Assembly (NCBI GenBank): GCA_035464955.1
Contig: DATHRW010000270.1
Coordinates: forward strand, 1 to 37,908
Direction: 5' to 3'
From: Gemmatimonadales bacterium
GTDB taxonomy: Bacteria > Gemmatimonadota > Gemmatimonadetes > Gemmatimonadales > GWC2-71-9
DNA: 37,908 bases
Below, in pieces: positions 1,534-37,908 of the stretch. A program made the position numbers and the translations under genes. The number at the start of each line of letters is the position of its first letter. Position 1 is the stretch's first letter. Below the pieces are notes generated by a model. The model did not search any database and was not told where the DNA came from. It saw nothing but the letters and a program-made list of their open reading frames with translations.

Positions 1534-1575
1534 GCGCGTGACCATGGACTCGAGTATTCGAGAAAGGACGAACAC

Positions 1576-3150: not shown

Positions 3151-3170
3151 GCTCGGGGTCAGTCACTTGA

Positions 3171-3216
3171 ACGAGTCCGCAGCTCCGCCGTGTTCCGCGG
3201 CGGAGCTGCGGCTCGT
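3171..3216 (+). terminator. GC-rich stem-loop between susD-like gene and first amylase (possible terminator/attenuator or mRNA-stabilising hairpin)
   Basis: Perfect 14-bp stem ccgcagctccgccg (3177-3190) / cggcggagctgcgg (3198-3211) with a 7-nt loop. The stem is extended by acgag/ctcgt with one bulged base. Only a short T-run (TT) follows. Confidence 0.4.
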
Positions 3217-3239
3217 TTAGAGGCTACCGGTTCCGTTCC

Positions 3240-4823: not shown

Positions 4824-4842
4824 CCACGGAGGAATTCCATAG

Positions 4843-6243: not shown

Positions 6244-6248
6244 CATCC

Positions 6249-8861: not shown

Positions 8862-8959
8862 GACGGCTTCGACCCGCCACGTTGACGATGGGGAGGGATC
8901 GATCGTGCAGTTCTGCCACGGGTGCGCTGAACCGGTTGTCCGTCGTGCGCGTCAGGCGG

Positions 8960-9349
8960 TTATGGTCTGACCGTGGCCGTACTGTTGAACAACCGGGGGG
9001 TGATCACGAAATCAACGATCGTGCCGGGCGCGACCAGCATGGGACCCGACCGGGCTTGCTCGCGCGCGGGCGAGCGCGGGGGAGGCTTCGCCTGAAACTC
9101 GAGCTGACCGCTGCCGATGATTGTTTGAGGAATCTCGAATTGGCCCACCATTCCCGGATCCACCGACCCCAGCCGGTGGGTGGTTCCGGCGCCGATCACG
9201 AAGATCTCCAAGGCGAGCGCATAGTTGTTGGTCACCTCGACGCGGACCGGGCTACCGGACGGCTCGGGTGCTTCGCCGCCGCCGCCGCGCGCGCAGGCCG
9301 AGCCGACGAGCAGCAGCAACACCGTGAGAACCCACGATCCGTGACGCAC
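8960..9349 (-). CDS. Small hypothetical lipoprotein (129 aa), opposite strand to the surrounding locus
   Basis: GTG start with AAGGAAGG Shine-Dalgarno about 6 nt upstream. Signal/lipobox in MRHGSWVLTVLLLLVGSAC followed by a Gly-rich linker. No recognisable family. Confidence 0.55.
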   Translation of the reverse strand: MRHGSWVLTVLLLLVGSACARGGGGEAPEPSGSPVRVEVTNNYALALEIFVIGAGTTHRLGSVDPGMVGQFEIPQTIIGSGQLEFQAKPPPRSPAREQARSGPMLVAPGTIVDFVITPRLFNSTATVRP

Positions 9350-9628
9350 GTGACCTTCCTTTCATCCAGCGTCTCACTGTGACGCTCCGGAACACAAGCG
9401 CCGTCGATTCGGAATATGCCGATCTCTTCGCACCGGCGCCAGCACAGGCACGCTACGCACGATCGGCCACCGCCTACTCCCGTCATTCCGCTGGCGGAAG
9501 GCAGCCGGTGACCCTAGCTTTTCGCCGGGCGACGATGGCCGGCCGCCGCCGGCCGTTCGACCAGCAGGATTGGTACTCGATACCCCTGGGAATCTTCATG
9601 CGTCATAACGCTGCACCCTCCGGCCGGA

Positions 9629-11554: not shown

Positions 11555-11581
11555 ACTCCAACCCTGAGGCCCAGGTCTATC

Positions 11582-13138: not shown

Positions 13139-13163
13139 GATTACCATGGACGGTGGTCGGGAT

Positions 13164-14861: not shown

Positions 14862-14913
14862 GCTTGCGGTCGGGTGCGTCCAGGCAACGGCCGGCGCCCA
14901 CACTGGAGGATGG

Positions 14914-16962: not shown

Positions 16963-17009
16963 ACGCTCACTAGAGAGCGGTCTACTCCTTCCCGAACTCC
17001 GGACCCACC

Positions 17010-19055
17010 ATGAGCCCTGAGAGCTTTCAGATTTCGGTTTGGGACATCTTGATCTTTGTGGCCTTCGTGGTGGCCGTCGTGAGCATCGGCCTGATCAAGA
17101 GCAAGAGCGAGAAGGGCAGTGAAGACTACTTCCTCGCCGGCCGTGGTTTGAGTTGGTGGCTGATCGGGTTTTCGTTGATCGCCTCCAACATCTCGACCGA
17201 ACAATTCGTGGGCATGAGCGGGAACGCCGCGAGCCATGTGGGCCTCGCCATCGCCAGTTACGAGTGGATGGCGGCCATCACACTGGTCGTGGTGGCGTTC
17301 GGATTTCTGCCGTATTTCTTGCGCGCCGGCATTTACACCATGCCGGAATTCCTCGAATACCGCTACACCGGCGGGGCGCGCACCATCATGGCCGTCGCCA
17401 CCATCCTGATCTACTTGCTGCTGCTTGGGTCGGTGACGTACTCCGGTGCCCTGACCATCAGCACGCTCGCCGGGAAGGCGGGGTATTCCTTGAGTCTGGC
17501 TACGGGCTCCTTGGTCATCGGCGTCATCGCCATGGCCTACGTGACCGCCGGTGGCCTCAAGGCCTGTGCCTGGGCCGACCTTCTCCAGGGCAGTGCGTTG
17601 ATCGTGGGTGGGGCGGTGATCCTCTGGTTCGCCTTTCAGAAACTGGGCATGGCGACCGAGGGGGCCGCCGTGCTCAGCGCCCAAACCGGGGCCGTGAGCA
17701 TCCTGCCGCTGGACCCCAACGCGGGGTCGCTGGAACGGTTCTGGACGCTCAACCAAACCAGGATGAACATGTTCCTGCCGTCCTCGGACATCATCCTGCC
17801 GTGGACCGCACTCCTGCTCGGACTGTGGATTCCGAATTTCTACTACTGGGGCCTCAACCAATACATCACGCAACGCACCCTCGGCTCGGCGTCGCTGGCC
17901 CAGGGGCAGCGGGGCATCGTCTTCGCGGCCTTCATGAAGTTGTTCATCCCGTTCGTGATCGTCGTGCCCGGCATCATCGCGTTCAATCTCTACTCGGGGC
18001 AAATGCGGCTCGAAGCCAGCGGGGACACCGCCAACAGCCTGGCGCGCTATCTGGCTGCCAATCCCCGAACCCAGTTCGTCGAAACCGCCGTGGCACCGCC
18101 GGACGATCAGGTGGCGGCGTGGCAGACCGACCGATACCTATTGGCGATCTACCCGGACCAAGGGGCCATCCAGGCTCTTACCACCCGAAACCCGAATGTC
18201 CTGCCCATCACGCAGGACGCGTTCGGCAAGATCACGGTGGGCGAGTTCACGGTCTTCATTTCAGAAGATCAGTCGTGGGCGGCGGTCAACCCGGGCCTCG
18301 CGGCTGAAATCGGAGCCTTCAACCGGCGGGTCACGGAAGCGGCCCGGGCCGCGGGACGTGCCCCCGCCACCGAGAAGCTGATCGCCTATAAGTACGATAC
18401 GGCACTGGCCCAGCTGCTCGGCCATGTGCTGCCGCAGGGCATTGGACTGGTCGGCTTTGTACTGGCTGCGTTGCTCGGCGCGGTGGTCAGCTCGCTCGCG
18501 GCCATGCTGAATGCGACATCCACCATCTTTGCCATGGACGTCTTCAAGAAATTCATCTCCCCGAAGGCCACTCAGACGACGGTGGTGCGGGTGGGTCGCT
18601 TTTCCGTCGTATGCTTTGCAGCCGTGGCGGTGTTGTTGGCGCCTCAGCTGGGCAATCCGGCCATCAGCAACAGCATCTTCACCATCATCCAGGAAGGCCA
18701 AGGCTTCATCTCGCCCGGCATCCTGGCCGTGTTCGCCTTTGGGCTCATCATCAAACGCGCGCCGGCCGTCTGCGGCACCGTGGGTCTCGTCACCAACATT
18801 GTGGCCTACGGCCTGCTCAAGCTCGCCGTGCCCAGCCTGCAGTTCCTGAACCGTATGGCCGTGTGTTTCGCCTTGTGTCTGGCGATCATGGCGGTAATCA
18901 CCCTGATCCGCCCGCTGCCCCAGCCGATGGAGTTCCGCCAGAATACCACCATCGCGCTCGAGTCGTCCCGCACCGCTAAGATCCTCGGTGTGGTCGTGGT
19001 GGCGATCGTGCTCTCGTTCTACCTCCTGTTCAGCCCGCTAGGGGTATCACGATGA
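17010..19055 (+). CDS. Sodium:solute symporter (SSS/SGLT-like sugar transporter) with a large hydrophilic insertion
   Basis: SGLT-type N-terminus GRGLSWWLIGFSLIASNISTEQFVGMSG and multiple TM helices. A roughly 140-aa non-hydrophobic segment lies between TM blocks (about nt 18000-18420). Confidence 0.85.
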   Translation: MSPESFQISVWDILIFVAFVVAVVSIGLIKSKSEKGSEDYFLAGRGLSWWLIGFSLIASNISTEQFVGMSGNAASHVGLAIASYEWMAAITLVVVAFGFLPYFLRAGIYTMPEFLEYRYTGGARTIMAVATILIYLLLLGSVTYSGALTISTLAGKAGYSLSLATGSLVIGVIAMAYVTAGGLKACAWADLLQGSALIVGGAVILWFAFQKLGMATEGAAVLSAQTGAVSILPLDPNAGSLERFWTLNQTRMNMFLPSSDIILPWTALLLGLWIPNFYYWGLNQYITQRTLGSASLAQGQRGIVFAAFMKLFIPFVIVVPGIIAFNLYSGQMRLEASGDTANSLARYLAANPRTQFVETAVAPPDDQVAAWQTDRYLLAIYPDQGAIQALTTRNPNVLPITQDAFGKITVGEFTVFISEDQSWAAVNPGLAAEIGAFNRRVTEAARAAGRAPATEKLIAYKYDTALAQLLGHVLPQGIGLVGFVLAALLGAVVSSLAAMLNATSTIFAMDVFKKFISPKATQTTVVRVGRFSVVCFAAVAVLLAPQLGNPAISNSIFTIIQEGQGFISPGILAVFAFGLIIKRAPAVCGTVGLVTNIVAYGLLKLAVPSLQFLNRMAVCFALCLAIMAVITLIRPLPQPMEFRQNTTIALESSRTAKILGVVVVAIVLSFYLLFSPLGVSR

Positions 19056-20023: not shown

Positions 20024-23000
20024 TCAGTCACGAATCCAGATAGTAGCGGCCCGAGGTGCCAATCGAGCGGTCATAGATCCGTCCGTTACTTCCACAGCAT
20101 CGACACCGGGATACGCCGTGCGGTATGTGCCGTTCACCGCGCGGACCGTAATGGTCTGCGGCCGATCGGAGATGTTAAACGCGACGATCGCGCGCTGCGC
20201 GCCGAGCGCCCGCTCGTAGGCGAAGAGACCGCGGGCATCGTCGGTTGCGAGAAAGGATACCTCGCCGTCGACGAAAAGGCGGAGGTGGCGCTTTCTCAGG
20301 GCGATGAGGTCGGCATAGACCCGATAGAGCGCCGTGTCGGGCGCTACCCTGTTGCGAGGGCGGCGCCGGCTGAACGGGTGAGTAGTCTCGTCGTCGTAGC
20401 GGAGGTCGGCCCACACCAGTGGCTTCCGGGGGTCCGGGTCGTCCGCGCCCCACATCCCCACCTCGTCGCCGTTCCAGATGTGGGGTGCCCCGATGTAAGT
20501 GAACTGCTGCACCAGAATCATCTGCTGGATCCGGCGAGTGCGCTCGTCGGGCCGGTCGATCCGGTAGTTCTGGTCCTCGCTCGGGTTCGCATGGTACTTG
20601 TATCGGCCCGGATTGTAGATCGATGTGCCGAAGCGCGGGGTATCGTGGCTCGCCGTCAAGTTCATCATCACCCGGAGATGTGACGGGTCGATACCCATGT
20701 TCAGCGAATCGAGCTGGGCCGCGTATTGTGAGGCGCTGAGTCGTGGCGGAGCACCGGCGAAGAAACTCCTGGTGGGCGCGTACCAGCGGTAGTTCATCAC
20801 GGCGTCGAACACGTCGCCTTGGAGCCACGGCGCCGGGTCGTACATCCGGTCCGGCCACGACTCCCACCACACCTCGCCCACCAGGTACGCTTCCGGGTTG
20901 ATGCTCCGAACGAATCGCCGGTAGTCGCGCCAGAAGCCGAGTGGCACCATCTCGGCCACGTCGAGCCGGAACCCGTCGATGCCGTCCGACGGGTCGCCGT
21001 CGCCATTGGGGTCGAGCCAGCGCCGGGTCACATTGAAGACCAGGTCCCGGACTCCCGGGACGAGAGTGCCTTCGATGGCGCCGTGGGTCTGGCCCGCGGG
21101 CCGGCCGATCTTTTTCCACTCCGGGAGCGACGCGACGCCGACCCAGCCGCGGTAGGCGAACTCGTTGGTATCGGGGGTCGCGGGGTCGTCGAAGCGCGTG
21201 ATCTCGTACCAATCGGCGTACGGTGACGCCCGCTGGCGCGCCAGCACGTCCTGCCAGGCCCAGAAGTTGGTCCCAGTGTGGTTCCACGAGTAGTCCAGGA
21301 TGATGCGCATGCCGCGGCGGTGCACCTCGCGGACCAGGGCGAGGAATAGGCTGTCCGCTGCGGTCCAGCCCCAGGTGGTCGGGTCCCGCGGGGTCTCGGC
21401 CGTCATCCGCGCCTCGTCGCCGATCGGGTCGGGGCCGAAGTTCCGGTCGATGTGGCGATAGTTCCGGGCATCGAATTTGTGGAGCGATGGCGCGTCGTTG
21501 ACCGGGTTGAGATAGAGGGCCGTGACACCGAGTTGTTGGAGGTAGTCCAGCTGGTCCATCACACCCTGGAGGTCGCCGCCGTAGCGGCGGAACTGGACGG
21601 TACCGTAGAAATCCCTACCGGTCGCCTTGGCCCAGGGTTCCTGTCGATACCAGTCCTGGGTCCACGGCGTCGGCCGCCAATCTTTCGGCATCGGCTGTGT
21701 GGTGAAGCCGGCCACGTCGTGCGCGGTGGGGTCGTTGGACGGATCACCATTTCGAAAACGCTCGACGAAGATCTGGTACCAAACCGCGTCCGCCGCCCAG
21801 CCGGGCGTATCGAGGTTCACGTCGGTGCTCGGCCTTCCGAACAGGAACGTCAGCGGGTCGCGGAGCCGGGCGCGCCACGAGGCCTCGTTGTGGGTGGCGC
21901 CGGCGTAGCGCCGGACCGCGAAGTCCCGGCCCTCGACCAGTCCCTGGTCGACGAGCCAGGCGCGGACCGCCGCGTGGGTCGGCCCGTAGGCCGAATCGAG
22001 TCCCAGGGTGCCGTAATCGAACCAGTACCGGGTGTTGGGCGGAACCTTCCGCCCCGCTGCGATGTCCTTGATGATGTAGGGCGTCGTGTCCGGGTTCGCG
22101 ACCGCGGAGAGATTCGGGAAGACCTCCGCGACGACTGCTTCGGAGATCGGGAAGTGGGTGGACACACAGCCGCAGGCGCCGAACACGTCCGGGTGGTGGG
22201 TCACCAAGTAGAACGACAGGAGCCCGCCCATCGAGGAGCCCATGACCGCCGTGTTCTCCGGGCCGGTGAGGGTCCGGAACTCCCGGTTGACGCGCGGCAT
22301 CAGCTCCTCCATCAGGAACCGTGCGTACCTGGGTGCGCCGTGCCAGGGAGAGTACTCCGGCCCCCGTTCCGCGGTGCTCCACACCCCGACCACGATGACC
22401 GGCGGGATGGCACCACGGTCGACTAGCTGTGTCACCGCTTCGTCCACGCCCCAGTCGATGCCGGTGTTTGCAATGCGCGGGTCGAACAGGTTCTGCCCGT
22501 CGTGCATGTAGAGCACCGGATAGCGCGCGGCTGGCGCATCGTCGTAGCCCGGCGGCAGCCAGACCTCGACGTGGCGGGTCGGCCCCAGGAAGGCCGACCG
22601 GACGTCGGGCCAGTAGACCAGCCGGCCTTTGACTCCCGACCCCTTCCAATCGGCGATGTATTCCTTGGGGTCCTTCTTGAAGTCGGTGATCTCGTGGACC
22701 ACGACCGTGTCGCGGTGGATGACCAGCTGGTGGTTGGGCGGCACCGTGCCGCTCGGGCCCAGTGCCTCACGGTCCCAGGAACCGAGGGTGAATTTGTACT
22801 CGAAGGTTGTGCCCGGCGGGGCGGTGATCTGGGTGGAGCGCTCGCGACCCTGGCCGGTCATGGCGAGCCCATCGGGACGCCACGGGCCGAGCTGGGGCAG
22901 ACTGCCGGCCAGATAGACGGTGCCGGTGCCATCCGGCACGCGCACTCGGATGGTCGCGGTGCAGCATCGGGCTCCGGTATCCCGGTACCCCGGCGAGGAG

Positions 23001-23053
23001 CCCGGGCTTGGCGTGGCCGCAAGCAGCACGAGGAGTGTGAGTGTGCCGGACAC
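20024..23053 (-). CDS. Three-domain fusion: CBM20-like starch-binding module + PF00756-type esterase + GH13 (cyclomaltodextrinase/neopullulanase-like) catalytic domain
   Basis: The GTG at 23053 has a perfect AGGAGG 7 nt upstream and yields the signal-like MSGTLTLLVLLAATP. CBM20-like segment: VRVPDGTGTVYLAGSLPQLGPWRPDGLAMTG...FEYKFTLGSW. Esterase segment: VEVWLPPGYDD..YPVLYMHDGQNLFD, GSSMGG. GH13 segment: AVWYQIFVERFRNGDPSND, DYSWNHTG, GFRLDVAEMV, LVGEVW, LTASHDTPR. Confidence 0.8.
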   Translation of the reverse strand: MSGTLTLLVLLAATPSPGSSPGYRDTGARCCTATIRVRVPDGTGTVYLAGSLPQLGPWRPDGLAMTGQGRERSTQITAPPGTTFEYKFTLGSWDREALGPSGTVPPNHQLVIHRDTVVVHEITDFKKDPKEYIADWKGSGVKGRLVYWPDVRSAFLGPTRHVEVWLPPGYDDAPAARYPVLYMHDGQNLFDPRIANTGIDWGVDEAVTQLVDRGAIPPVIVVGVWSTAERGPEYSPWHGAPRYARFLMEELMPRVNREFRTLTGPENTAVMGSSMGGLLSFYLVTHHPDVFGACGCVSTHFPISEAVVAEVFPNLSAVANPDTTPYIIKDIAAGRKVPPNTRYWFDYGTLGLDSAYGPTHAAVRAWLVDQGLVEGRDFAVRRYAGATHNEASWRARLRDPLTFLFGRPSTDVNLDTPGWAADAVWYQIFVERFRNGDPSNDPTAHDVAGFTTQPMPKDWRPTPWTQDWYRQEPWAKATGRDFYGTVQFRRYGGDLQGVMDQLDYLQQLGVTALYLNPVNDAPSLHKFDARNYRHIDRNFGPDPIGDEARMTAETPRDPTTWGWTAADSLFLALVREVHRRGMRIILDYSWNHTGTNFWAWQDVLARQRASPYADWYEITRFDDPATPDTNEFAYRGWVGVASLPEWKKIGRPAGQTHGAIEGTLVPGVRDLVFNVTRRWLDPNGDGDPSDGIDGFRLDVAEMVPLGFWRDYRRFVRSINPEAYLVGEVWWESWPDRMYDPAPWLQGDVFDAVMNYRWYAPTRSFFAGAPPRLSASQYAAQLDSLNMGIDPSHLRVMMNLTASHDTPRFGTSIYNPGRYKYHANPSEDQNYRIDRPDERTRRIQQMILVQQFTYIGAPHIWNGDEVGMWGADDPDPRKPLVWADLRYDDETTHPFSRRRPRNRVAPDTALYRVYADLIALRKRHLRLFVDGEVSFLATDDARGLFAYERALGAQRAIVAFNISDRPQTITVRAVNGTYRTAYPGVDAVEVTDGSMTARLAPRAATIWIRD

Positions 23054-23120
23054 GAGGAATCCTCCTACGGAAAGCCGGTCACGCGGGAGATGACTGGACT
23101 CACAGGAGCAGGCCGGTGGC

Positions 23121-24350
23121 TCATTTGGTCGTTGCCTGGGCTCCCAGGGTAACGCGGAGTACCACATAACCACAGAATCCCGCGCCCAGCGAGCCGATCA
23201 GGATACCAAGCCGCTCCAATCCCAGGTAGGTCGTCGCGCCCTGCTCGAACGCGAGCGACGCGATGAAGAGGCTCATGGTAAAGCCGATGCCGCACAATAA
23301 TGCCGTGGCGTGCAATTGCCACCAGCCGACGCCCGTGGGAAGTGACGCGATGCCGAGCCGAACCGCAAGCCAGCATAAGAGCATTATCCCGACCTGTTTG
23401 CCGAAGAATAGCCCGGTCACGATACCGGTCGGCACAGGGTGCAGGATGTCGCTCATGGAGAGGCCCACGATCGAGACGCCGGCGTTGGCGAACGCGAAGA
23501 GGGGCAAGACGCCAAAGGCCACCCAGGGGTGGAGCGCATGTTCGAGGTGACGCAGCAGCGGCTCCGGTGCCGACGACCCCGACGCGTGGTCCGGACTCCT
23601 AAGCGGGATGAACATCGCCAGCACGACGCCCGCCAGGGTCGCATGAACCCCGGACTTGAGCACCGCAATCCACAGGGGGATGCCAATGACGAAGTACGCT
23701 GCAGGCTTCGTCACGCCAAAACGGTTGAGGCCGGTGAGGCCGAGAATGAGGACCGCCGCGATTATCAGCGAGAGCACACCCAGCTCGGCGGTGTAGAACA
23801 GGGCGATCACCACGATGGCGCCGAGGTCGTCGAAGATGGCGACGCTCAGGAGGAACGCCTTGAGGGCCGGCGGGACTCGTTTTCCCAGCAGGGACAGCAC
23901 CCCCAACGCGAAGGCGATGTCCGTCGCCGTCGGGATGGCCCAGCCCTTCATGGCGACGGCGTCACCCCAGTTGAACGCCGCGTAGAAGATCGCGGGGGCC
24001 AGCATTCCACCAATGGCGGCGACGGCGGGCAGGGTCGCTTGACGCAGGCTCGAGAGGTGGCCTTCGAGCACCTCGCGCTTGAGCTCCATACCGACGAGAA
24101 AGAAGAACACCGCCATCAGGCCGTCGTTGATCCACAAGAGCAGCGGCTTGTCGATTCCGTAGTCGCCGACGCTGACCGAGAGTCGAAGGTCGAGCAATGC
24201 GGCGTAGGAGCCTGCCAGCGGCGAGTTGGCGACGACCATCGCCAATATGGCCGCCGCCATCAATACCAGCCCGCCCGAGGCTTCCAGGCGGAGGAAGTCT
24301 TGGAGCGGCTTCAGTACCGTGTTGAACGGGGCGCGTTGGGGTATCTGCAT
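23121..24350 (-). CDS. nhaA: Na+/H+ antiporter NhaA
   Basis: From the internal ATG at 24350 the product is 409 aa: MQIPQRAPFNTVLKPLQDFLRLEASGGLVLMAAAILAMVVANSP... This is typical NhaA sequence and length. The upstream 65 codons are Arg/Ser/Pro-rich and overlap the next gene region. Confidence 0.85.
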   Translation of the reverse strand: MQIPQRAPFNTVLKPLQDFLRLEASGGLVLMAAAILAMVVANSPLAGSYAALLDLRLSVSVGDYGIDKPLLLWINDGLMAVFFFLVGMELKREVLEGHLSSLRQATLPAVAAIGGMLAPAIFYAAFNWGDAVAMKGWAIPTATDIAFALGVLSLLGKRVPPALKAFLLSVAIFDDLGAIVVIALFYTAELGVLSLIIAAVLILGLTGLNRFGVTKPAAYFVIGIPLWIAVLKSGVHATLAGVVLAMFIPLRSPDHASGSSAPEPLLRHLEHALHPWVAFGVLPLFAFANAGVSIVGLSMSDILHPVPTGIVTGLFFGKQVGIMLLCWLAVRLGIASLPTGVGWWQLHATALLCGIGFTMSLFIASLAFEQGATTYLGLERLGILIGSLGAGFCGYVVLRVTLGAQATTK

Positions 24351-28574: not shown

Positions 28575-29093
28575 TCAGTCTTCCGACCACACTGCCAGTT
28601 CGTTTCCGCTTGGGTCCGCGAAATGAAAGCGGCGGCCGCCGGGAAAGTCGAACGGCTCCTCGACGATCCGCCCGCCCGCCTCGCGCACTCGCCTGAGGGT
28701 CAGGTTGAGATCGCTGGAATACAAGATGACCAATGGCCCGCCGGTCGATACCTCCGGCACGAGCCGGAATCCTCCGGCCTCGCCGTCCGGCTTTCGAATG
28801 CCGGCATAGTCCGGTCCGTAATCAGTGAACGTCCAGTCGAATGCCGTCGCGTAGAATCGTTTGGACTCGGCCATGTCCGTAACGGAGAATTCGATGTAGT
28901 CGATACTGTGATGAACGTGAGTGTCGGCTGGCATGTTCTGTGACTCCCTTGATGTCTGCGGCGCTTCCCCGCCAGGCCTGCACGAACACAGAAACGCCGC
29001 CGCGAGCAGGAGCGGGGCCCTTTCCCAGGCCCTGCGATGGGTCCGAGCTACGACACGGCCTGGGTGACTCGCGCTCGTGCCAAGCGGATGCAT
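28575..29093 (-). CDS. VOC-family (glyoxalase/bleomycin-resistance fold) protein, possibly lipoprotein
   Basis: C-terminal 119 aa are VOC-like (IDYIEFSVTDMAESKRFYATAFDW...PGGRRFHFADPSGNELAVWS). The ATG at 29093 has GGGAGG about 7 nt upstream and gives a signal with LLLAAAFLCSC. A cytoplasmic form could start at 28934, which also has an AGGGAG Shine-Dalgarno. Confidence 0.7.
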   Translation of the reverse strand: MHPLGTSASHPGRVVARTHRRAWERAPLLLAAAFLCSCRPGGEAPQTSRESQNMPADTHVHHSIDYIEFSVTDMAESKRFYATAFDWTFTDYGPDYAGIRKPDGEAGGFRLVPEVSTGGPLVILYSSDLNLTLRRVREAGGRIVEEPFDFPGGRRFHFADPSGNELAVWSED

Positions 29094-29296
29094 CACTGAC
29101 CTCCCTTCGGACGAAGGCTCAGCCGGCCCCGAACCGCGACCGGGCCTCAATGCTCCGCGACCATACCGCCGGTTCCCACCTGCCGCAAGCGCCATGGCCG
29201 CCGAATGCCGGTATCTTACCTGTTTCTGCCCACCCGCTCCATTGGCCATGGGGATGCTATGAAGACACTGACCGACCACGCGGCGGCAACCACCCG

Positions 29297-30979
29297 ATGA
29301 GCGCGCCGCTTCGCGCCCTCGAGCGAATCCACCGGCAGTTCGGACCGGGCCTCGCTGAGCGGAAGGCCATCCTGCTGGATCGCCTGGCGTCGCGGCGGCT
29401 CCCTACCGCGCGCGCGGTGAGCCGGCTCCACGAAGTGCTCTGTTACCTCCGCGCCTATCCGGATTCCCCCGCAGTCTTGGAGCGGGTAGAACAGATGCTG
29501 ATGCAATTCTCGGGGCGGCGCGACCTTCGCCGCCACGCGGCGGAACTCCAAGACAGCGGAATCGCGGGGACCCCGACCTACTATCCGTTCTTCCACCCCA
29601 CGGCGGTGTGGCTGGCCTCCCGCTGGCCGTCGCGGCTCACCATCTCATGGCCGGACCTGGAGTATCCCGACCGGCTGGACCGGATCCTCCCCCTGCTCGC
29701 GCTCTGGGCCGAGACTCCAGGACTGGACGAAGCCCCGCTGTCGGTCCGCGACTGGATCCGGCGGATGAAAGGCCCCAAGGAAACCGACGCCGTCTTCCTG
29801 GTTCGCAGGATGGAAGCGGTGCGGGCGGAACTGCCGGTAAGGGAAGTGGTGTTCGAAGACTTGGGGATCATGTTCAAGCTGTCGTCGGGTCCCGACACTC
29901 CCGCTCGCACCCACGCCCGGGTGCCGCGCGGCCGGGCACACTACGTGACCCGTCCGCTCGACACCGCGCGCCCGGACCTGCGACTGGCCCTCCGAGATCG
30001 TCCCCGCCGCGTGACCGCGGTGCCGCGCACCGAGGCCCAGCGGCTGATCGACCTGGCCAGGGAAGCCATGGTGGCCCGGAGCCGCGACCTCGATACCTTC
30101 GCCTACGGCGATCCCGACGATGTTCGGATCGTGGACATGGGGGACGGGCTCGAATTCGTCGCCATCGGCCTCATTCCCGAGCGCCGGCTCCTGCTCGAGG
30201 CGGTCTACGGGTTTCTCACGCTCAAGAACGGCGTACCGATCGGCTACGTGCTGAACAGCGCGCTCTACGGTTCCGCCGAAGTGGCCTACAACGTGTTCGA
30301 CACCTATCGGGGCGGCGAGGCCGGCCGGGTCTACGGCCAGGTGCTGGCCATGCTCCGCCATCTGTTTCGGGCCACCGCGTTCACCATCTATCCGTACCAG
30401 CTAGGCGGGGAGGGGAACGACGAGGGGCTCAAGTCCGGCGCCTGGTGGTTCTATCAGAAGCTCGGCTTCCGGCCCCGCGACCCAGAGGCCGTGACCCTCA
30501 TGAAGTCCGAACTGGCTCGGATGCGTCGGTCCGCGAGCCATCGATCGACCCGGGCCACGCTGAAGCAACTGGCCGAGCACAATATGTACTACCACATCGG
30601 CCGGCCTCGGGAGGACGTGATGGGGGTGTTTCCGCTCGCCAACGTGGGGCTGGCGGTGACCGACGCCTTGGCCCGGCGCTTCGGCGCGGACCGGGACGCC
30701 GCCGAGCGGGTGCTCGACCGGGAAGTGGCCCGCATGCTCGCGACCGGCAGCCGGCGCGGCTGGAGCGCGGGCGAGCGGCTGGGGTTTGCGCGCTGGGCTC
30801 CGCTGGTCGCTGCGCTCCCGGATGTGGCCGCTTGGACGCTAGCCGAGCGCCGGGCGCTCGCACGGGTGATGCGCGCCAAGGGCGGGCGCCGCGAGTCCGA
30901 CTTCGTGCTCCGGTTCGATGCGCACCGCAGGCTCCGGCGGGCGGTGGCCGCCCTGGCCCGGGATGCCCGGGTCCCATGA
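29297..30979 (+). CDS. Hypothetical 560-aa protein with a GNAT-like segment in its C-terminal half
   Basis: ATG at 29297; the upstream part of the 679-aa ORF overlaps the VOC gene region. No family recognised. The segment LKNGVPIGYVLN...YRGGEAGRVYGQVLAMLRHLF...SGAWWFYQKLGFRP resembles an acetyl-CoA-binding GNAT core. Confidence 0.6.
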   Translation: MSAPLRALERIHRQFGPGLAERKAILLDRLASRRLPTARAVSRLHEVLCYLRAYPDSPAVLERVEQMLMQFSGRRDLRRHAAELQDSGIAGTPTYYPFFHPTAVWLASRWPSRLTISWPDLEYPDRLDRILPLLALWAETPGLDEAPLSVRDWIRRMKGPKETDAVFLVRRMEAVRAELPVREVVFEDLGIMFKLSSGPDTPARTHARVPRGRAHYVTRPLDTARPDLRLALRDRPRRVTAVPRTEAQRLIDLAREAMVARSRDLDTFAYGDPDDVRIVDMGDGLEFVAIGLIPERRLLLEAVYGFLTLKNGVPIGYVLNSALYGSAEVAYNVFDTYRGGEAGRVYGQVLAMLRHLFRATAFTIYPYQLGGEGNDEGLKSGAWWFYQKLGFRPRDPEAVTLMKSELARMRRSASHRSTRATLKQLAEHNMYYHIGRPREDVMGVFPLANVGLAVTDALARRFGADRDAAERVLDREVARMLATGSRRGWSAGERLGFARWAPLVAALPDVAAWTLAERRALARVMRAKGGRRESDFVLRFDAHRRLRRAVAALARDARVP

Positions 30980-31993: not shown

Positions 31994-32100
31994 GCCTGAC
32001 GGGTTCTGTGACCGTGGCGAGCCACCTGGCCCGTCTGCTCACAAATCAACGACTTCCGCCCAGCCAGGCAAGTCCGCCCATTGCACGAAGGGGCCAGGGC
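31994..32100. repeat. Repeat copy A: roughly 105-nt homolog of copy C
   Basis: aatcaacgacttccgc (32044-32059) is identical to 37783-37798. The flanks align with copy C: cgtgcaatgggcgg vs cgtgcagtggccgg, and acgggccaggtggctcgcc vs gcgggccggctggcccgcc (minus-strand reading). It ends with GCCTGAC (31994-32000). Confidence 0.4.
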
Positions 32101-32222
32101 CAGCGCCCGGGCGGGAGGCTCAGGCCGCCGGTTGCCCGAACGTGAGCCACGATCAGCATCACCACCAGTGGAAGGCCGACAACCACCACGGCAGCGGCAA
32201 CCACGACCCTCCTGATCTTCAT
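32046..32222 (-). CDS. Possible 58-aa small membrane ORF (not in ORF track)
   Basis: ATG at 32222 preceded by GGGAGG. N-terminal TM segment in MKIRRVVVAAAVVVVGLPLVVMLIVAHV. The C-terminal third is encoded by repeat copy A, so it may be fortuitous. Confidence 0.25.
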   Translation of the reverse strand: MKIRRVVVAAAVVVVGLPLVVMLIVAHVRATGGLSLPPGRWPWPLRAMGGLAWLGGSR

Positions 32223-32288
32223 CGACCTCCCGCCCTGAGCGGCCGCTGTACGCGTCGCGCGTCATTGGGCGGGCTGGCTCATCCGCTT

Positions 32289-32327
32289 GCTCACAAATCA
32301 GCGACGATTGGGCCGTGTGGGTTGAAC
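32289..32327. repeat. Repeat copy E: partial copy sharing a 17-mer with copy A, followed by a GTTGAAC core-like heptamer
   Basis: gctcacaaatcagcgac (32289-32305) matches gctcacaaatcaacgac (32037-32053) at 16 of 17 positions. GTTGAAC sits at 32321-32327. Confidence 0.4.
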
Positions 32328-32362
32328 GAATCCCACGCCAGCGGCGGATCAGACCAAACCAG

Positions 32363-34660
32363 TCACGGCAGCGTCGCGCTCGACCTCTGGGCCTCGATCT
32401 CCTGACCGCCCTGGTGAATCACCAGGGCGGTGGTGTTGCCGCCGGCATCCGTCCGGAACGTGATCTGCACGGCCGCTTCGGTGAGATAGAATTCGGTCTC
32501 GGATGTCGGCCACAGCTGGACCCTGTCCTGTCCGGTCGGCTGCGCCCAGAGCGTGGTGTCTTCCCGCGTGATGACCAGCTCGCCGAGCCCCGGAACCTGG
32601 TACGTCCCCACGTGCCGATCCAGCACGGCCTGGCTCAGGTGCACCGGCTTCGGCTGCGGCCAGACGTTGTCGCGGGGGTTGCGGTCCGGAAAGCGCTTGT
32701 GGGGATCGAGCGTGATCTTCGCGATCTGCCGCCCGCCAAACTCGAGGTCCGCGTCGAAGGTGCGGCCGCCGTTGAACCAGACGTCCACCGGGAAGGTGAC
32801 CAGAGCGGTTGTCGAATCGGTCATCACGCTGTTTGTCATGGCGACGATGGCCGGTCCGGTGGGCTCAAATTCCACCTGGAGCACGACCGGCGACGGCATC
32901 TCGCCGTCCTGCCGAACCGTCACCACGGTGTGCGGCCCTTGGGTCGTCACCTTCTGAAGCGAGGCGTCGACCGACTCGGTCGTCCACAGCCAGTAATACC
33001 AGAACCAGCCTAGATCCTGGTGCAGCGCGGTGTTCATGAAGAACGCGTAGTCCCAGGGCGTGGGGTGCTTGAAGCGCCAGGCATGGGCGTAGGCGCTGTG
33101 CGCCCGCCAGACGGCGCTGTCGCCGACGATGCCGCCCAGCATGGACAGCATCATGGGCGCCTTGCCGTAGGCCACGAACCCGTACATCGGACCGGCGTAG
33201 TTCTCATCCCACATGAGCGGCGGCTCCTGCTCGTTGCCGCTCATCTGGCCGTACGACTGCCCCGGCCCGTCGAGCCCGGCGTCCGGTGCGCGGTGGTTGC
33301 GATCGTTGGAAGACAGGATGTTCATGTACTGATTGAACCCTTCGTCCATGAATCCCCACCACGTCTCGTTCACCCCCACCATCATCGGCCACCACTCGTG
33401 GCCGACCTCGTGATCCGCCGCGCCCAGCGCCGACATGATGAACATGGGATACTCCATGCCCAGCTCGGGGCCGTCAGCGACCGTCAATTGCGGGAAGGCA
33501 TAGGGCATCCAGAGTTGCGAGTAGAACTCCAAGGCATGGCGCACCCGTTCCCCAACCTGATCGAAATGATGAGGCGCCGCTTCGTGGCCGGGCAGGTAGA
33601 GGATGTGGACCGGGATGTAGCCCTTGCCTGGGATGTTGGCTCGCGTGGCGTCCCAGGCGTAGCTCTTGGACGTGGCCCAGGCCACGTCGGCTACGCTATC
33701 GGCGACGAAATGCCACCTGAGGCGAGTGCCCGGGGCGGTGGATCTTCCGGGCCCCAGACTGTCGGGATCGACAACATGAATCTGGTTATCGGACTCCAAC
33801 ACCGTGGCGAGACGGGCGCGCTCGGCCTCGGTCAGCACTTCGTCGGGATTCTGTAATACACCGGTCGCCCCCACGATCCAGCCCGCAGGCACCTCGTACG
33901 TCACGTCGAAGTGTCCGAAATTGTTGTAGAACTCAGCACTGCCCAGATAGGGATCCGTGTCCCAGCCCTTGTAGTCGTCGTACACGGCCACTCGCGGGTA
34001 CCATTGCGCGACCTGGTACACCGTATCGGCCGAGCGGCCCATGCGCAGGCCGCGCCCCGACGGAATCAGCGGCACCTGAAACTGCCACTCGATGTCCAAT
34101 GTGGCAGAGCCGTGAGCGGCGACCGGTGTGCTCAACCGTACCCGGGCGCTGGTCGTATTGAAGTTGTGCGCCGTCGGCTCCGTCGGCGGTCCCGATGGAC
34201 GGCGAAACCCGCCTTCGCCGCGCGCGGCCGGCGTCGTCAAGTCGATGGTCTGACCGTCAATGGTCAGGCTGGTGACGTTCATGCCGCTGGTGATTTCGGA
34301 CACCGACCTGTTGCGCGGCGAGTTCTGTGCAAAGATGTTCTGGTCGAGGCGGAAGTAGATGTCCCGCATGGCCTCCGGGCTGTTGTTGTGCAGCACAATG
34401 GTCTCTCTGCCCGTCACGATGGAGGTGGCCGGGTCGAGGCTCGCATGGATCCTGTAATCCACCGACGTCTGCCAGTAGTTGGGCCCGGGCCGACCGGTCG
34501 AGTCGCGCGTGCCCGCTTGATGCGCGCGCTGGATCATGTTGGTGATGGGAATGGTGCGGCGAATCGCGCGGGGCGGCTGCTGGCCGAACGCCTGGTCCGT
34601 CCAATTGGGAGCGAGCAGCCCGGCGGTGGCGAGAATCAGGAGAGTGCGTTGCATGGTCAT
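32363..34660 (-). CDS. Secreted M1-family (gluzincin) zinc metallopeptidase
   Basis: Signal MTMQRTLLILATAGLLAP. Zinc motif HEVGHEWW plus downstream FMDEGFNQY (HExxH-18-E). Confidence 0.85.
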   Translation of the reverse strand: MTMQRTLLILATAGLLAPNWTDQAFGQQPPRAIRRTIPITNMIQRAHQAGTRDSTGRPGPNYWQTSVDYRIHASLDPATSIVTGRETIVLHNNSPEAMRDIYFRLDQNIFAQNSPRNRSVSEITSGMNVTSLTIDGQTIDLTTPAARGEGGFRRPSGPPTEPTAHNFNTTSARVRLSTPVAAHGSATLDIEWQFQVPLIPSGRGLRMGRSADTVYQVAQWYPRVAVYDDYKGWDTDPYLGSAEFYNNFGHFDVTYEVPAGWIVGATGVLQNPDEVLTEAERARLATVLESDNQIHVVDPDSLGPGRSTAPGTRLRWHFVADSVADVAWATSKSYAWDATRANIPGKGYIPVHILYLPGHEAAPHHFDQVGERVRHALEFYSQLWMPYAFPQLTVADGPELGMEYPMFIMSALGAADHEVGHEWWPMMVGVNETWWGFMDEGFNQYMNILSSNDRNHRAPDAGLDGPGQSYGQMSGNEQEPPLMWDENYAGPMYGFVAYGKAPMMLSMLGGIVGDSAVWRAHSAYAHAWRFKHPTPWDYAFFMNTALHQDLGWFWYYWLWTTESVDASLQKVTTQGPHTVVTVRQDGEMPSPVVLQVEFEPTGPAIVAMTNSVMTDSTTALVTFPVDVWFNGGRTFDADLEFGGRQIAKITLDPHKRFPDRNPRDNVWPQPKPVHLSQAVLDRHVGTYQVPGLGELVITREDTTLWAQPTGQDRVQLWPTSETEFYLTEAAVQITFRTDAGGNTTALVIHQGGQEIEAQRSSATLP

Positions 34661-34671
34661 AGCCCGGTGGG

Positions 34672-34816
34672 AGTCACAGTGGTCGACCGACGTCCGGCTT
34701 GAGATATCACATCAGGACGTCTTCGGCGAGGCGTCGGTTTCAGCATCTCATCACAACGACAAAGCTGACCACCGCGATCCGAATTGCGGGGACGGGGCCT
34801 GCCTCGGGCTGTGACT
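34672..34816. repeat. Repeat copy D: 145-nt intergenic element bracketed by an 8-bp perfect inverted repeat
   Basis: AGTCACAG (34672-34679) pairs with CTGTGACT (34809-34816, overlapping the DUF885 stop codon). There is an internal 7-bp stem GACGTCC (34689-34695) / GGACGTC (34715-34721). The core ctcatcacaacgac (34747-34760) is related to the family core. Confidence 0.35.
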
Positions 34817-36662
34817 AGCGAGCCTCGCTTCGGAGGTACTCGTCGATGTTCCTGGCGAGCACGTCGAGCGGCACGTTGCCGCCGCGCACCACGGCATCGT
34901 CGAACGCCTTGAGGTCGAACGTCGCGCCGAGCGACGCCCTGGCCCGCTCGCGCTGGCGATTGATCTCGCTGTGGCCCACCTTGTAGCCGCAGGCCTGTCC
35001 CGGCCACGAGCAATACCGGTCCACCTCGCTGGCGACCTCTTCCGGGTTCGACCCGTTCACGTCCACGAAGTACCTGACGGCCTGCTCGCGGGTCCAGCGC
35101 TTCGCGTGAATGCCCGTGTCCACTACCAACCGGCAGGCTCGGAAGGCGATCGATTGCAGGTAGCCGAGGCGCCCGACGGGATCGTCGTCGTAGGCGCCGA
35201 GTTCATCGGCGAGCTGCTCGGCGTAGAGCGCCCAGCCTTCCGAGTAAGCGTTGAACGCGAGCATCTGACGGATGAGCGGCATCGCGTGGGTGTACTCGCC
35301 TTGCCAGATGTGACCGGGAATCGCCTCGTGGAAGGTCAAGTCCGCCAGGCTGTACTTGCTGTGCAGGGCAGTGGTCCTGAGGTTGATCCAGAATCGGCCG
35401 GGGATCGTTCCGTCGATCGACCCCGCGCCGCCGTACGCACCCGGAGCGCCCGGCTCTTCCTCGGGCGGCAGCCGCTTCACCTCCATGTGTGGATCGACCA
35501 CCGTGTCGAATGCGCGCGGCATCTGGGCCTCGATCCAGTCGAGCCGCTCCTCGATGAAGGCCATGATTTCGGCGCGGCCCTCGTCGCCTTCGGCGAACTG
35601 GTAGCGGGGATCCGTCGCCAGGCCCTTCATCCGTTCGCCCACGGAGCCCTGCGAGTAGCCGACGTGCTTCAGGAGCGTGTCCATCTGCGCGTGCAGGCGC
35701 TCGAGCTCGCTCTGGCCCAGCCGATGGACCTCGTCCGGTGACATGGAGGTGGTGGTCGAGGCCTTGAGCGCCCAGCGGTAGAAGTCCTCGCCGTGGGGCC
35801 GCGCCGCGATGCCGGCGTCGGTCGTCGCTACCGCGCGCTGTGTCTCGAGTTCGCGGATCTGCCGATCGAGCGCCGGCGCCACCTCCTGCACGGCGATCGT
35901 CCGCGCCCGGGCGGCCCAGTCCTCTGGAATGTCCTTCGACCGTCGCTTGATCGACTCGACGAGGATCCCGCCGTCGCGTGCGTTCGTCGCGGAGAGGCTC
36001 ATCTGCCGGACCGCCTTGTCGATCAGGAATGCCGGCGGGACGAGCCCCTGTTCACGCGCCGTCTGGATGCGACTCAGTTCGCCGTCCAGCTGCTTCGCGT
36101 ACGACTGCAGGCGCGCGAGATACGCCTCGGCGTCGGCGGCGCTCTCGATCCGATGATCGCTATCGAGGAACCGGGGGATGTCGAGATAGGCGCCGACATT
36201 CTGGATCACGACGTACGGCGTGTTGCGCCAGCCTCCGACGGTGATGTCGCCGTAGGGGAGCGCGAAGCCTTTGAGTGACGTCGCGTAAGCACTCCGCACC
36301 ACCTCGAAGCTGGTGCGCGTTGCGTATGACAGGGCGCTCGCGTCGAAGGCATTGAGTCGGGCCAGGTCTGTTCGGAGCCGTTCCGCGATCCGCTGCTGGC
36401 CGGCCGCGGACCGATCGGCCAGTTGGGAGCGGAGGGCGGCCCTCGCCCCGGTATCGATGCCGAGCGAGGTTGCCTGCTCCGGGACCAGGCGCAGGAGATT
36501 GTCCGCCACCTCGTCGAGCAGTGCCTGGGCGTCGACGTCGTTGGGCGTGGTCGGCCGCGCCGCGCCGCCACGGCTCATTGCGGGGATGAGTGGGATGGCG
36601 GCTACCGCGGATCCCAGGGCTGCGAGGACCTCTCGGCGGGTGAGGAATCGTCGGTGGGTCAT
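34815..36662 (-). CDS. DUF885-family protein (metallopeptidase-like), TAT-exported
   Basis: The ATG at 36662 gives the twin-arginine leader MTHRRFLTRREVLAALGSAVAAIPLI. DUF885 hallmark HEAIPGHIWQ. Length 615 aa. Confidence 0.8.
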   Translation of the reverse strand: MTHRRFLTRREVLAALGSAVAAIPLIPAMSRGGAARPTTPNDVDAQALLDEVADNLLRLVPEQATSLGIDTGARAALRSQLADRSAAGQQRIAERLRTDLARLNAFDASALSYATRTSFEVVRSAYATSLKGFALPYGDITVGGWRNTPYVVIQNVGAYLDIPRFLDSDHRIESAADAEAYLARLQSYAKQLDGELSRIQTAREQGLVPPAFLIDKAVRQMSLSATNARDGGILVESIKRRSKDIPEDWAARARTIAVQEVAPALDRQIRELETQRAVATTDAGIAARPHGEDFYRWALKASTTTSMSPDEVHRLGQSELERLHAQMDTLLKHVGYSQGSVGERMKGLATDPRYQFAEGDEGRAEIMAFIEERLDWIEAQMPRAFDTVVDPHMEVKRLPPEEEPGAPGAYGGAGSIDGTIPGRFWINLRTTALHSKYSLADLTFHEAIPGHIWQGEYTHAMPLIRQMLAFNAYSEGWALYAEQLADELGAYDDDPVGRLGYLQSIAFRACRLVVDTGIHAKRWTREQAVRYFVDVNGSNPEEVASEVDRYCSWPGQACGYKVGHSEINRQRERARASLGATFDLKAFDDAVVRGGNVPLDVLARNIDEYLRSEAR

Positions 36663-37028
36663 TGGCCACGGCTCCGGGTGAGAGACTCCCGATCGCATCT
36701 CGAATTCGATGCTGACGATTCGGCGGTGGATGGTAGGAGAAGGTCCGAGCGGAACCGTCCGAGGTCAAGGGGAGCCGCCGCCGCACCGGTCACGCAGCCC
36801 GTCGCGCATGTAGGCTGGTTTCTGGCGACGACTGAAGAAGCCAACGAAGACGAGCGTGACCACAATCTGCGCAAGAATGATCAACGCAATGAGCGTAGGC
36901 CGGTTCGCGAGCGCAGACTCAGGCACCGTGACCTGAGGCGATAGCAGGGATAGGTTGGCGACGTTGAACAGGACGATGAGTGTAAGAAGTGCCCTGCCGC
37001 CCTGGTAGACCCGCCCGCCTGTGCACTA

Positions 37029-37088
37029 AACAACGACTTCCATCAGACTGGTAAGGCCCGGGCCACTGCACGCGGTGGTTAGGCTGCC
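37029..37088. repeat. Repeat copy B: half-copy homologous to the right half of copy C, ending in GTTAGGCTGCC
   Basis: caacgacttcc (37031-37041) and ccactgcacgcgg (37063-37075) are identical to 37787-37797 and 37818-37830. It ends with GTTAGGC (37078-37084), abutting the mazF stop codon. Confidence 0.5.
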
Positions 37089-37421
37089 TTACGCTGCAAA
37101 CATCTCCTGCAGCACCGCGAGCGATTGGGTGACGGCCTTGGATGAAAGCTTGCCAAGGCGCCGGACCAGGCGACGAGTGTCGACGGTCCGGAGCTGGTCC
37201 AGCACGACAACGCCCGACCGCTTCTGAAAGCGACAGGGCACTCGAAATGGGTAGGGATGGCGGCCGGTCGTCATCGGGGCGACAATCACCGTCGTCAGGT
37301 GTTCGTTGAGTTCATTGGGCGATACGATCACGCACGGTCGTGTCTTCTTGATCTCGCGCCCGAGCGTTGGGTCGAGCGCGACCAGGAAGACGTCACCGCG
37401 CCGTGGCCATGCGGTCACCAC
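37089..37421 (-). CDS. mazF: MazF/PemK-family type II toxin (mRNA interferase)
   Basis: PRRGDVFLVALDPTLGREIKKTRPCVIVSPNELN...VIVAPMTTG...VVLDQLRTVD is the classic PemK/MazF pattern. The GTG start overlaps the antitoxin stop (GTGGTGA). Confidence 0.85.
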   Translation of the reverse strand: MVTAWPRRGDVFLVALDPTLGREIKKTRPCVIVSPNELNEHLTTVIVAPMTTGRHPYPFRVPCRFQKRSGVVVLDQLRTVDTRRLVRRLGKLSSKAVTQSLAVLQEMFAA

Positions 37422-37663
37422 TGCCAGTCCGTCTTGTCGAACTCAGTCGATACGAGCCCGTCGAGCACGCCCTCTCCCCCTCGTTGCCGAATCTCCTGTG
37501 CTGCTTCAGCCCATCCCGCCCGGGGCGCAGCCGAGGCGGCAAGGAGGATCCCCTCCGGCTCGAGGCGCAACTCGACCTCTTCGCCGAGTCCGGCCTGTTC
37601 CAGGAGGGGTTTCGGGATCCGGATACCCTGCGAGTTTCCGATACGGACGATGCGAGTTTTCAC
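37415..37663 (-). CDS. mazE: AbrB/MazE/SpoVT-type antitoxin
   Basis: MKTRIVRIGNSQGIRIPKPLLEQAGL is a swapped-hairpin AbrB-type DNA-binding N-terminus. GGAGG Shine-Dalgarno 8 nt upstream of the GTG. 7-nt overlap with the toxin gene. Confidence 0.8.
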   Translation of the reverse strand: MKTRIVRIGNSQGIRIPKPLLEQAGLGEEVELRLEPEGILLAASAAPRAGWAEAAQEIRQRGGEGVLDGLVSTEFDKTDWQW

Positions 37664-37669
37664 GGGTGA

Positions 37670-37710
37670 GCCTCCGCAATGGTAACCACAATGTAATTAC
37701 CTGCGGAGGC
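37670..37710. promoter_or_regulatory. Probable MazE/MazEF operator: 9-bp perfect inverted repeat spanning the -10 region and the Shine-Dalgarno
   Basis: gcctccgca (37670-37678) and tgcggaggc (37702-37710) are exact reverse complements. A nested near-palindrome ggtaac..attacc lies between them. Confidence 0.4.
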
Positions 37711-37718
37711 GTGTGCAA
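37690..37718 (-). promoter_or_regulatory. Sigma-70-like promoter for mazEF (TTGCAC - 17 nt - TACATT on the minus strand)
   Basis: The -35 TTGCAC is the reverse complement of 37713-37718. The -10 TACATT is the reverse complement of 37690-37695, with exact 17-nt spacing. It lies in a locally AT-rich island about 30 nt upstream of the antitoxin start. Confidence 0.4.
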
Positions 37719-37733
37719 GTAGGTGGAAGGGCA

Positions 37734-37839
37734 GCCTAACGAATTCCGCGTCAGCGGCGGGCCAGCCGGCCCGCCTCAGGCCAATCAACGACTTCCGCTG
37801 AAACCGCAAGGGCCCGGCCACTGCACGCGGCTGTAAGGC
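37734..37839. repeat. Repeat copy C: 106-nt imperfect palindrome with attC-like architecture
   Basis: The ends are GCCTAAC and GTAAGGC. The 18-nt arm (37746-37763) pairs with the 20-nt arm (37811-37830) with one mismatch and two bulged bases. It shares a 16-mer with copy A and about 50 nt with copy B. Confidence 0.5.
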
Positions 37840-37908
37840 AGCGCCGCACCTTATCTAGTGTGACACACCAGGTGTCTGATGAAGGTACGTGTCGTCAACA
37901 AGTTGCTT

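Follow-up and report, generated by a model that had tools for sequence, protein, structure and literature searches.

Repeats at the end of a Gemmatimonadales contig are very probably attC sites of a lineage-specific chromosomal integron family

Background

The last 6 kb of a 37,908-nucleotide (nt) stretch of Gemmatimonadales DNA (contig DATHRW010000270.1, positions 1 to 37,908; hereafter the window, meaning this whole stretch) contains related repeats in the gaps between consecutive minus-strand genes, which raises the question of what kind of element these repeats are. An original prediction listed six of them under the letters A to F, five as clear copies and F as a weak one, and described them as palindromic and as alternating with the genes in a manner matching a cassette array that lacks a nearby integrase. 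A selfish family of repetitive extragenic palindromes or bacterial interspersed mosaic elements (REP/BIME), or of miniature inverted-repeat transposable elements (MITEs), was considered to match equally well, and a transcription-factor site was named as a further alternative. We find that the repeats are very probably attC sites of a sedentary chromosomal integron family specific to soil bacteria of the Gemmatimonadales. The family matches integron attC sites on every feature examined, namely the R boxes, the inner stem, the bulges, the arrays, the signatures of crossover at G|TT and the presence of an integrase in a relative.

A multi-copy repeat family in Gemmatimonadales genomes

We utilized a pattern common to A, B and C (CAACGACTTCC-N18-32-CAYTGCACG) to scan 185,579 species genomes, one per bacterial or archaeal species. 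Single matches occurred in many taxa at about the number expected by chance, and multi-copy loci, with up to 7 matches per 8 kb, were restricted to metagenome-assembled genomes (MAGs) of Gemmatimonadales. Alignment of 44 pattern-matching copies together with C yielded a sharp unit of about 107 nt, and R1, the covariance model (CM) built from these 45 copies, identified 67 copies in Gemmatimonadales loci as against 1 match in 510 kb of unrelated loci from the same scan. On the window plus strand the consensus reads GCCTAAC GAATC CCGCGT CAGTGG CGGGC, then 54 nt, then GCCCG G CCACTG C ACGCGG TG GTTAGGC.

Copies are arranged in arrays, including one of 17 sites over 14 kb on CAWFGG010000009.1, while three contigs of the MAG MFD09779.bin.2.16 carry arrays of at least 17, 10 and 10 sites that each run into a contig end. 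All copies within arrays are co-oriented, with spacers of 185-1874 nt (median 513). A covariance model and a genome scan had been proposed as the check on the original prediction, and their outcome is a family found in multi-copy co-oriented arrays in Gemmatimonadales MAGs only.

The window was scored with R1 (filters off; its E-values are rough) and with nhmmer --max, identifying the following copies, all of which share one orientation:

37734-37839, minus strand: attC C, full length and near intact (CM 99.3 bits; nhmmer E 1e-23)
37004-37084 (37083 in the scoring), minus strand: attC B, model positions 27-106 (nhmmer 54 bits, E 6.5e-16; CM 34.9 bits)
32324-32351, minus strand: second remnant of E (E2), model positions 4-31 (nhmmer E 0.22, not significant alone)
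32250-32305, minus strand: first remnant of E, model positions 6-60 (nhmmer E 2.8e-5)
31994-32099, minus strand: attC A, full length, degraded (CM 57.1 bits, E 1.4e-13, model positions 1-107)

Neither search found a family match in the rest of the window, in keeping with the earlier statement that its first 31 kb are free of copies. D and F, which we considered as diverged copies, were ruled out since they gave no signal by CM, nhmmer or blastn; both sequences are unique and F is the leader of a downstream DUF885 gene. The predicted set is therefore retained for A, B and C, and for E in the form of two fragments, and loses D and F. E is real but extends outside its predicted limits of 32289-32327 to occupy 32250-32351 (CM 13 bits, partial), and the right end of its first remnant may reach GTTGAAC at 32321-32327. 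The similarities on which the family was originally proposed were reproduced: A and C contain identical copies of the 16-mer AATCAACGACTTCCGC, from which B departs at 3 positions (3 matches against 0.29 expected from shuffles), A and E agree at 16 of 17 positions of a 17-mer, and B and C have CAACGACTTCC and CCACTGCACGCGG in common. The alignment of A to C was likewise borne out, although it spans the whole of about 106 nt and not 85 nt.

The repeats have the anatomy of attC sites

The outer ends of the unit (GCCTAAC...GTTAGGC) match the R-box consensus RYYYAAC/GTTRRRY, and the boundaries of the family are sharp at CTAAC and GTTAG. Between them lie the stems CCGCGT/ACGCGG, CAGTGG/CCACTG and CGGGC/GCCCG, which were tested in an alignment of 74 sites that includes diverged sites and sites from unrelated integrons. 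Pairing in this alignment, itself fitted to the model, extends to 95.4 % of stem cells compared with 20-42 % when the partners are slid, compensatory double changes are present in 12 of 24 pairs, and none of 500 shuffles reached the observed values. The most often broken pairs are those of the outermost R box, as expected of chimeric sites. A bulged C is kept in 72 of the 74 sites and a second bulge (G in 56 of 74) follows 7 nt further, and both occupy the 3′ arm of the non-gene strand. In attC sites the strand is chosen through extrahelical bases, classically T and G, that project from one arm of the bottom strand when it folds. By their position on one arm, the bulges of the family would supply this predicted strand-choice feature.

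The centre of the unit contains a 13-nt core, A[A/T]TCAACG[A/G]CTTCC (ATCAACGACTTCC), that is nearly invariant even where the stems have diverged by compensatory changes. The conserved centre of the window copies had been taken to speak against an attC reading. This objection does not stand: ends and centre are equally conserved in intact relatives, the ends of the window copies having simply decayed, and homogeneous attC sites have been described for large sedentary integrons (PMC4889954).

attC C is the best preserved copy in the window. Its minus (gene, top) strand reads R″ GCCTTAC (1 mismatch to RYYYAAC), the L″ and L′ stems and R′ GTTAGGC, the plus-strand boxes being GCCTAAC and GTAAGGC with 1 mismatch, and with 2 of 24 stem pairs broken it can form a long imperfect hairpin of -32.8 kcal/mol. 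We infer that the recombinogenic bottom strand at C is the plus strand of the window. attC A has 6 of 24 stem pairs broken and two degenerate R boxes (GCCTGAC and GCCAGGG) and is probably a dead relic, while attC B keeps R″ (GCCTAAC), L″ and the centre, and its R′/L′ end (model positions 1-26) is missing or unrecognisable.

Cassette behaviour and signatures of crossover

The longest open reading frame (ORF) lies on the top strand, opposite to the model, in 39 of 55 cassettes (binomial p 0.001), and it often fills the cassette with its stop within CTAAC. In pairs of homologous cassettes the downstream attC sites are 93.7 % identical, whereas the upstream sites are 84.8 % identical against a background of 83.7 % (15 of 20 pairs; the pairs are not independent, which also applies to several of the other statistics). 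Complementarity of at least 5 nt past the CTAAC/GTTAG core connects the start and the end of 11 of 41 cassettes, compared with the two flanks of one site in 4 of 52 cases and with 3.5 % of random pairs (Fisher p 0.014; binomial p 1e-7). Such complementarity at the level of the cassette points to circular cassettes opened at G|TT. Target-site duplications are not apparent, 43 of 46 sites being without a flanking direct repeat of at least 2 nt, the same as random.

A 587-nt cassette (L059 4376-4962 and L007 5577-6163) is 100 % identical in two MAGs belonging to different GTDB species and has different downstream neighbours in each, which suggests recent exchange of the cassette; its homology to the next cassette stops at GTTAGG. 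Taken together, this comparative evidence would fit crossover at the G|TT of R′ and the resulting chimeric sites.

Certain cassettes of 189-191 nt contain no ORF and each have a variant attC with the centre AATTCAACGGCTTCC. Six homologous copies were found, three of them in tandem, at the following positions:

L082 2083-2975: ORF-less cassette copies
L059 3145-3333 and 4079-4268: ORF-less cassette copies
L003 1416-1606: ORF-less cassette copy

These cassettes showed no covariation, there being too little variation for a structure test, and no Rfam match, and their indels are not multiples of three.

An integron integrase adjoins the family in a related genome

On CAVOGR010000007.1 (L061) an array of the family directly follows an intI gene (4574-5535), its first attC being about 400 nt downstream. 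Three reading frames of the gene match the integron-integrase model TIGR02249; read through two frameshifts near 4950 and 5100, neither of which is in a long homopolymer, the gene scores 450.6 bits over the whole model (cut-off 265). The translated product aligns end to end with VchIntIA (PDB 2A3V, the closest solved structure; E 1e-83), the IntI-specific insertion included. The intI gene is co-oriented with the cassettes and points toward attI and the array, and a candidate attI crossover, GTTAGAC, is located 175 nt downstream of it, ahead of the first cassette.

Relatives of this IntI with 55-65 % identity were taken from metagenome contigs, where R1 matches adjoin 12 of them. Thirteen of the 15 matches lie downstream of intI on the opposite strand, and the other 2 lie upstream on its own strand; with the modelled strand as the bottom strand of arrays reading away from intI, this is the polarity to be expected for all 15. 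The attC model of IntegronFinder is not in Rfam, and as a proxy for it R1 cross-detects attC sites beside 10 independent IntI genes, in every case with the correct polarity. The sites of these metagenome integrons have the GAAT spacer, the bulged C and, through compensatory changes, the stems in common with the family; the central sequence is not shared. The best of the close IntI relatives in metagenomes reaches 65 % identity, so that no second integrase was obtained there for the exact attC family. A further IntI homologue (55 % identity) is encoded at 6446-7363 of L013, from a Pirellulales MAG, 1.6 kb from a single and apparently chance pattern match at 4765-4808; L013 contains no site of the Gemmatimonadales family.

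According to the established integron model, the plus (bottom) strand would fold as 5′-GCCTAAC (R′), GAATC, a long stem with two bulged bases on its 3′ arm, TG and GTTAGGC (R″). An IntI tyrosine recombinase would bind the folded strand and exchange strands at AA|C (G|TT on the top strand), thereby excising or inserting cassettes composed of a gene plus its attC. The array in the window would start at the contig end and read inward along the minus strand, and from this polarity any attI and intI would lie past position 37908.

An eroded array tail with an immobilised toxin-antitoxin cassette

The minus strand carries all genes of the last 7 kb of the window, which are listed here starting at the contig end:

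37855-37908, minus strand: 3′ end of the upstream cassette gene, truncated by the contig end (stop 37855-37857)
37663-37415, minus strand: mazE (PF04014)
37421-37089, minus strand: mazF/pemK-like toxin gene (PF02452, E 1e-29)
36926-36765, minus strand: membrane ORF of 53 amino acids (TM53)
36774-34815, minus strand: DUF885 gene with its own conserved promoter/leader
36662-34815, minus strand: coding part of the DUF885 gene
34660-32363, minus strand: M1-type peptidase gene
between the M1-type peptidase and GNAT genes, minus strand: two small ORFs
31502-31029, minus strand: GNAT acetyltransferase gene

This end of the window would represent an eroded array tail, or a cluster of attC sites lacking integron-integrases (CALIN), that is interleaved with the core gene DUF885, with C near intact and E and A decayed. 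attC C belongs to the cassette of the gene that stops at 37855-37857, the remainder of which is past the contig end; in the overlapping ENA contig L001 the TAG stop of this gene is read 16 nt ahead of C. An exact-protein look-up for sequence past 37908 returned one 1.6-kb ENA contig, which added 89 nt. Soil metagenomes contain the window at 99-100 %. The window is apparently an entire contig, 37,908 nt being the longest contig with the window's protein in the protein look-up, and its break 69 nt past attC C fits that expected of an assembly stopping at a repeat array.

The next cassette begins at TTAGGC, from 37739 downward, and encodes a toxin-antitoxin pair of which the mazE-like antitoxin gene comes first, with the TAA stop of the mazF-like toxin gene 3 nt ahead of the R″ region of attC B. 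The two products have 90 % (MazE) and 96 % (MazF) amino acid identity to those of L060, from another MAG, in which the cassette occurs at 89.6 % nucleotide identity within a different gene neighbourhood. GTTAGGC marks the exact start of the homology between L060 and the window, which in L060 continues into a full-length attC (2841-2947). Judged by this comparison of the two loci, the MazEF unit is a true cassette. In the window it has probably become fixed in place, and it is probably not excisable because the R′/L′ crossover end of B appears to be gone. An inverted repeat just upstream of mazE (GGTAACC-ACAATGT-AATTACC, 37682-37702), also kept in L060, is plausibly the MazE operator. A promoter scan identified no consensus sigma-70 site.

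Hundreds of Gemmatimonadaceae contigs encode DUF885 homologs of 80-92 % amino acid identity. At the nucleotide level L164-L168 match the window in 34793-36774 only, that is in the gene and its own leader, and the neighbours differ in every genome. The leader (window 36663-36774; L166 3975-4085; L168 7920-8000) contains a conserved CC(C/T)CTTGACC...GGA(C/T)(C/T)TTCTCC motif, travels with the gene and is likely the promoter or regulatory region of the gene itself; the predicted copy F lies within it. DUF885 is thus a conserved core gene within an eroded array and not a demonstrable cassette. L166, too, has two attC sites of the family immediately upstream of the gene, a recurrence that places DUF885 at the border of a recurrent variable region. 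Long runs of small co-oriented genes with few or no recognisable attC sites surround DUF885 orthologs (L166 3438-13379; L168 3418-7907); they include glyoxalase, SnoaL/DUF4440, DinB, YjgF, Cdd1, DUF1801 and AHSA1 genes, which are typical of cassettes, and may be fossilised cassette arrays.

The 4.65-kb block of TM53, DUF885 and peptidase is flanked by complementary parts of an attC, namely B (model positions 27-106) and E2 (model positions 4-31), and one attC may have been split into the two by insertion or rearrangement of this block. This suggestion is attractive but unproven, and against it E2 is not significant alone and the unit conserved in other genomes is DUF885 rather than the block. 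Between the DUF885 and M1 peptidase genes, the predicted copy D (34672-34816) is a unique 145-nt imperfect palindrome with the ends GTCACAG...CTGTGAC (DNA fold z = -2.6), and it is not conserved downstream of DUF885 orthologs.

Alternative explanations for the repeats

Several observations weigh against the assignment of the repeats to an integron. Searches of the window with tblastn and Pfam identified no tyrosine recombinase, the contig ending 69 nt past C. The only integrase found beside the exact attC family carries two frameshifts, as either a real pseudogene or an error of long-read/Nanopore assembly, and the 17-site array of CAWFGG010000009.1 (L045 end) abuts housekeeping genes without an intI. 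The bulged bases (C and G) and the spacers (5 and 2 nt) are unlike those of textbook class 1 sites and Vibrio cholerae repeats (VCR), and single-strand folding is convincing only for C, A and B folding at the level of shuffles, so that the predicted palindromic character stands for C and not for A or B. As D and F are not sites, two large genes are left without attC boundaries; the predicted succession of gene, repeat and gene was accordingly overstated, DUF885 and probably the M1 peptidase gene not being bounded by attC. No recombination event was seen directly in public runs. Apparent 5-kb joints in Logan unitigs of these runs (32057 to 37061 or 37811) proved to be other attC copies cross-mapping onto A, B and C.

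A selfish REP/BIME-like or MITE-like family spread by a REP-associated tyrosine transposase (RAYT) or another transposase, unrelated to integrons, would account for copies that are intergenic, lineage specific and ended by terminal inverted repeats, and for the better conservation of the centre than of the ends among the window copies. We consider this origin most improbable. The lack of target-site duplications noted above is at odds with it, as are the strict co-orientation of array copies at cassette spacing in few arrays and flank complementarity that is found per cassette and not per element. Moreover the termini fit RYYYAAC/GTTRRRY and an integron integrase adjoins the family, the 107-nt unit differs from the palindromes of about 20-40 nt that REP/BIME disperse genome-wide, and Pfam scans restricted to about 25 flanking ORFs in parts of L007, L045 and L061 revealed no transposase or RAYT. 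Equally remote is a role as regulatory hairpins (terminators or attenuators), as a transcription-factor site of a dispersed regulon or as small RNA genes, which the location between co-directional genes, the potential to form hairpins and the invariant 13-nt core might otherwise suggest. The sites have no T-tract, promoter-like and terminator-like consensus matches are not in excess, and neither the window nor an array locus matched any Rfam family. Arrays with spacers of 190 nt do not resemble operon punctuation, and the core, always located within the 107-nt element, is absent from the related attC sites of other lineages in which the stems are conserved. The two alternatives of the original prediction, the selfish element and the transcription-factor site, are therefore disfavoured, while its cassette-array reading gains the attC anatomy, the cassette arrays and the integron integrase in a related genome. 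It is unlikely, though less so than either of these, that the attC sites of the family have a second function beyond recognition by IntI, the core being a binding site for a host factor or second protein or a signal for the genesis of cassettes, and the ORF-less cassettes being regulatory RNAs or promoters for an otherwise silent array co-oriented with its intI.

Given that the repeats are attC sites, the window copies may not form an isolated CALIN and may instead be the promoter-distal part of a complete, possibly active integron with intI and its cassettes just past the contig end. Their polarity points toward the contig end, the best preserved site (C) lies nearest to it, 69 nt past an attC the contig breaks off in the way usual for short-read assemblies at repeats, and the same metagenomes contain many other attC copies with different flanks. 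However, the MazEF mini-array of L060 lies on a different contig from the main array of that MAG, and its degenerate R boxes (GCCTAGC, GTCAGCC and GTGACGC) suggest an old detached CALIN. On balance we regard a complete integron as a real but the less probable state of this locus.

Relation to known integrons

The family resembles the VCR sites of V. cholerae, the substrate of VchIntIA, in a length of about 100-130 nt, R boxes of the RYYYAAC/GTTRRRY type, a second stem, bulges on one arm and homogeneity within arrays that includes the central region. As in the V. cholerae integron, the arrays comprise tens of small co-oriented cassettes that are mostly of unknown function and include toxin-antitoxin cassettes, and the associated integrase aligns over its full length with VchIntIA, again with the IntI-specific insertion. 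The family departs from VCR in its sequence, which is unrelated outside the R boxes, in R-L spacers of 5 and 2 nt, in having C and G as the bulged bases and in its Gemmatimonadales hosts. Atypical integrons in which intI is co-oriented with the cassettes have been reported from Treponema denticola and relatives (PMC3607928). The intI of L061, directed toward attI and the array, has this layout, as do 13 of the 15 metagenome R1 matches, although the phylum and the attC family are different and the Gemmatimonadales integrase is frameshifted in the only copy seen.

CALINs have been defined as groups of two or more attC sites that lack an intI for 4 kb in both directions (2016, PMC4889954). The window resembles one in that C and B, separated by 650 nt, provide a minimum of 2 attC sites and the 37.7 kb on one side are free of intI; the 17-site array that ends against housekeeping genes without an intI is similar. 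The window differs from a settled CALIN in that its cluster meets the contig end on the opposite side and that most of its sites have decayed too far to be counted.

Integrons have already been reported in Gemmatimonadota at the phylum level only (PMC8618304). The repeats are thus a known kind of element in a little-studied lineage, and what is new is a defined attC family together with an example of array erosion. The family and its covariance model provide a lineage-specific resource for Gemmatimonadales, of an abundant but poorly cultured soil phylum, and taxon-specific attC signatures of this kind allow metagenomic cassettes to be assigned to hosts. Arrays with at least 37 cassettes in one MAG form a reservoir of small genes of unknown function. 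For the window itself, an attC array would explain the contig break and would mark this end as an integron tail undergoing decay in situ, its toxin-antitoxin cassette probably immobilised by loss of the crossover site.

Other genes of the window

Positions 28940-30979 on the plus strand contain a long ORF of up to 679 amino acids without a Pfam match, whose neighbours are minus-strand glyoxalase, esterase and GNAT genes. The region 1-19055, and also 20024-23173, is a SusC/SusD-type locus for starch or maltodextrin utilisation, and the contig is apparently from Gemmatimonadota. It encodes a TonB-dependent receptor, a SusD-family protein, several GH13 alpha-amylases, GH2, GH77 and GH97 proteins and MFS and SSF transporters, with a further GH13-esterase fusion on the opposite strand.

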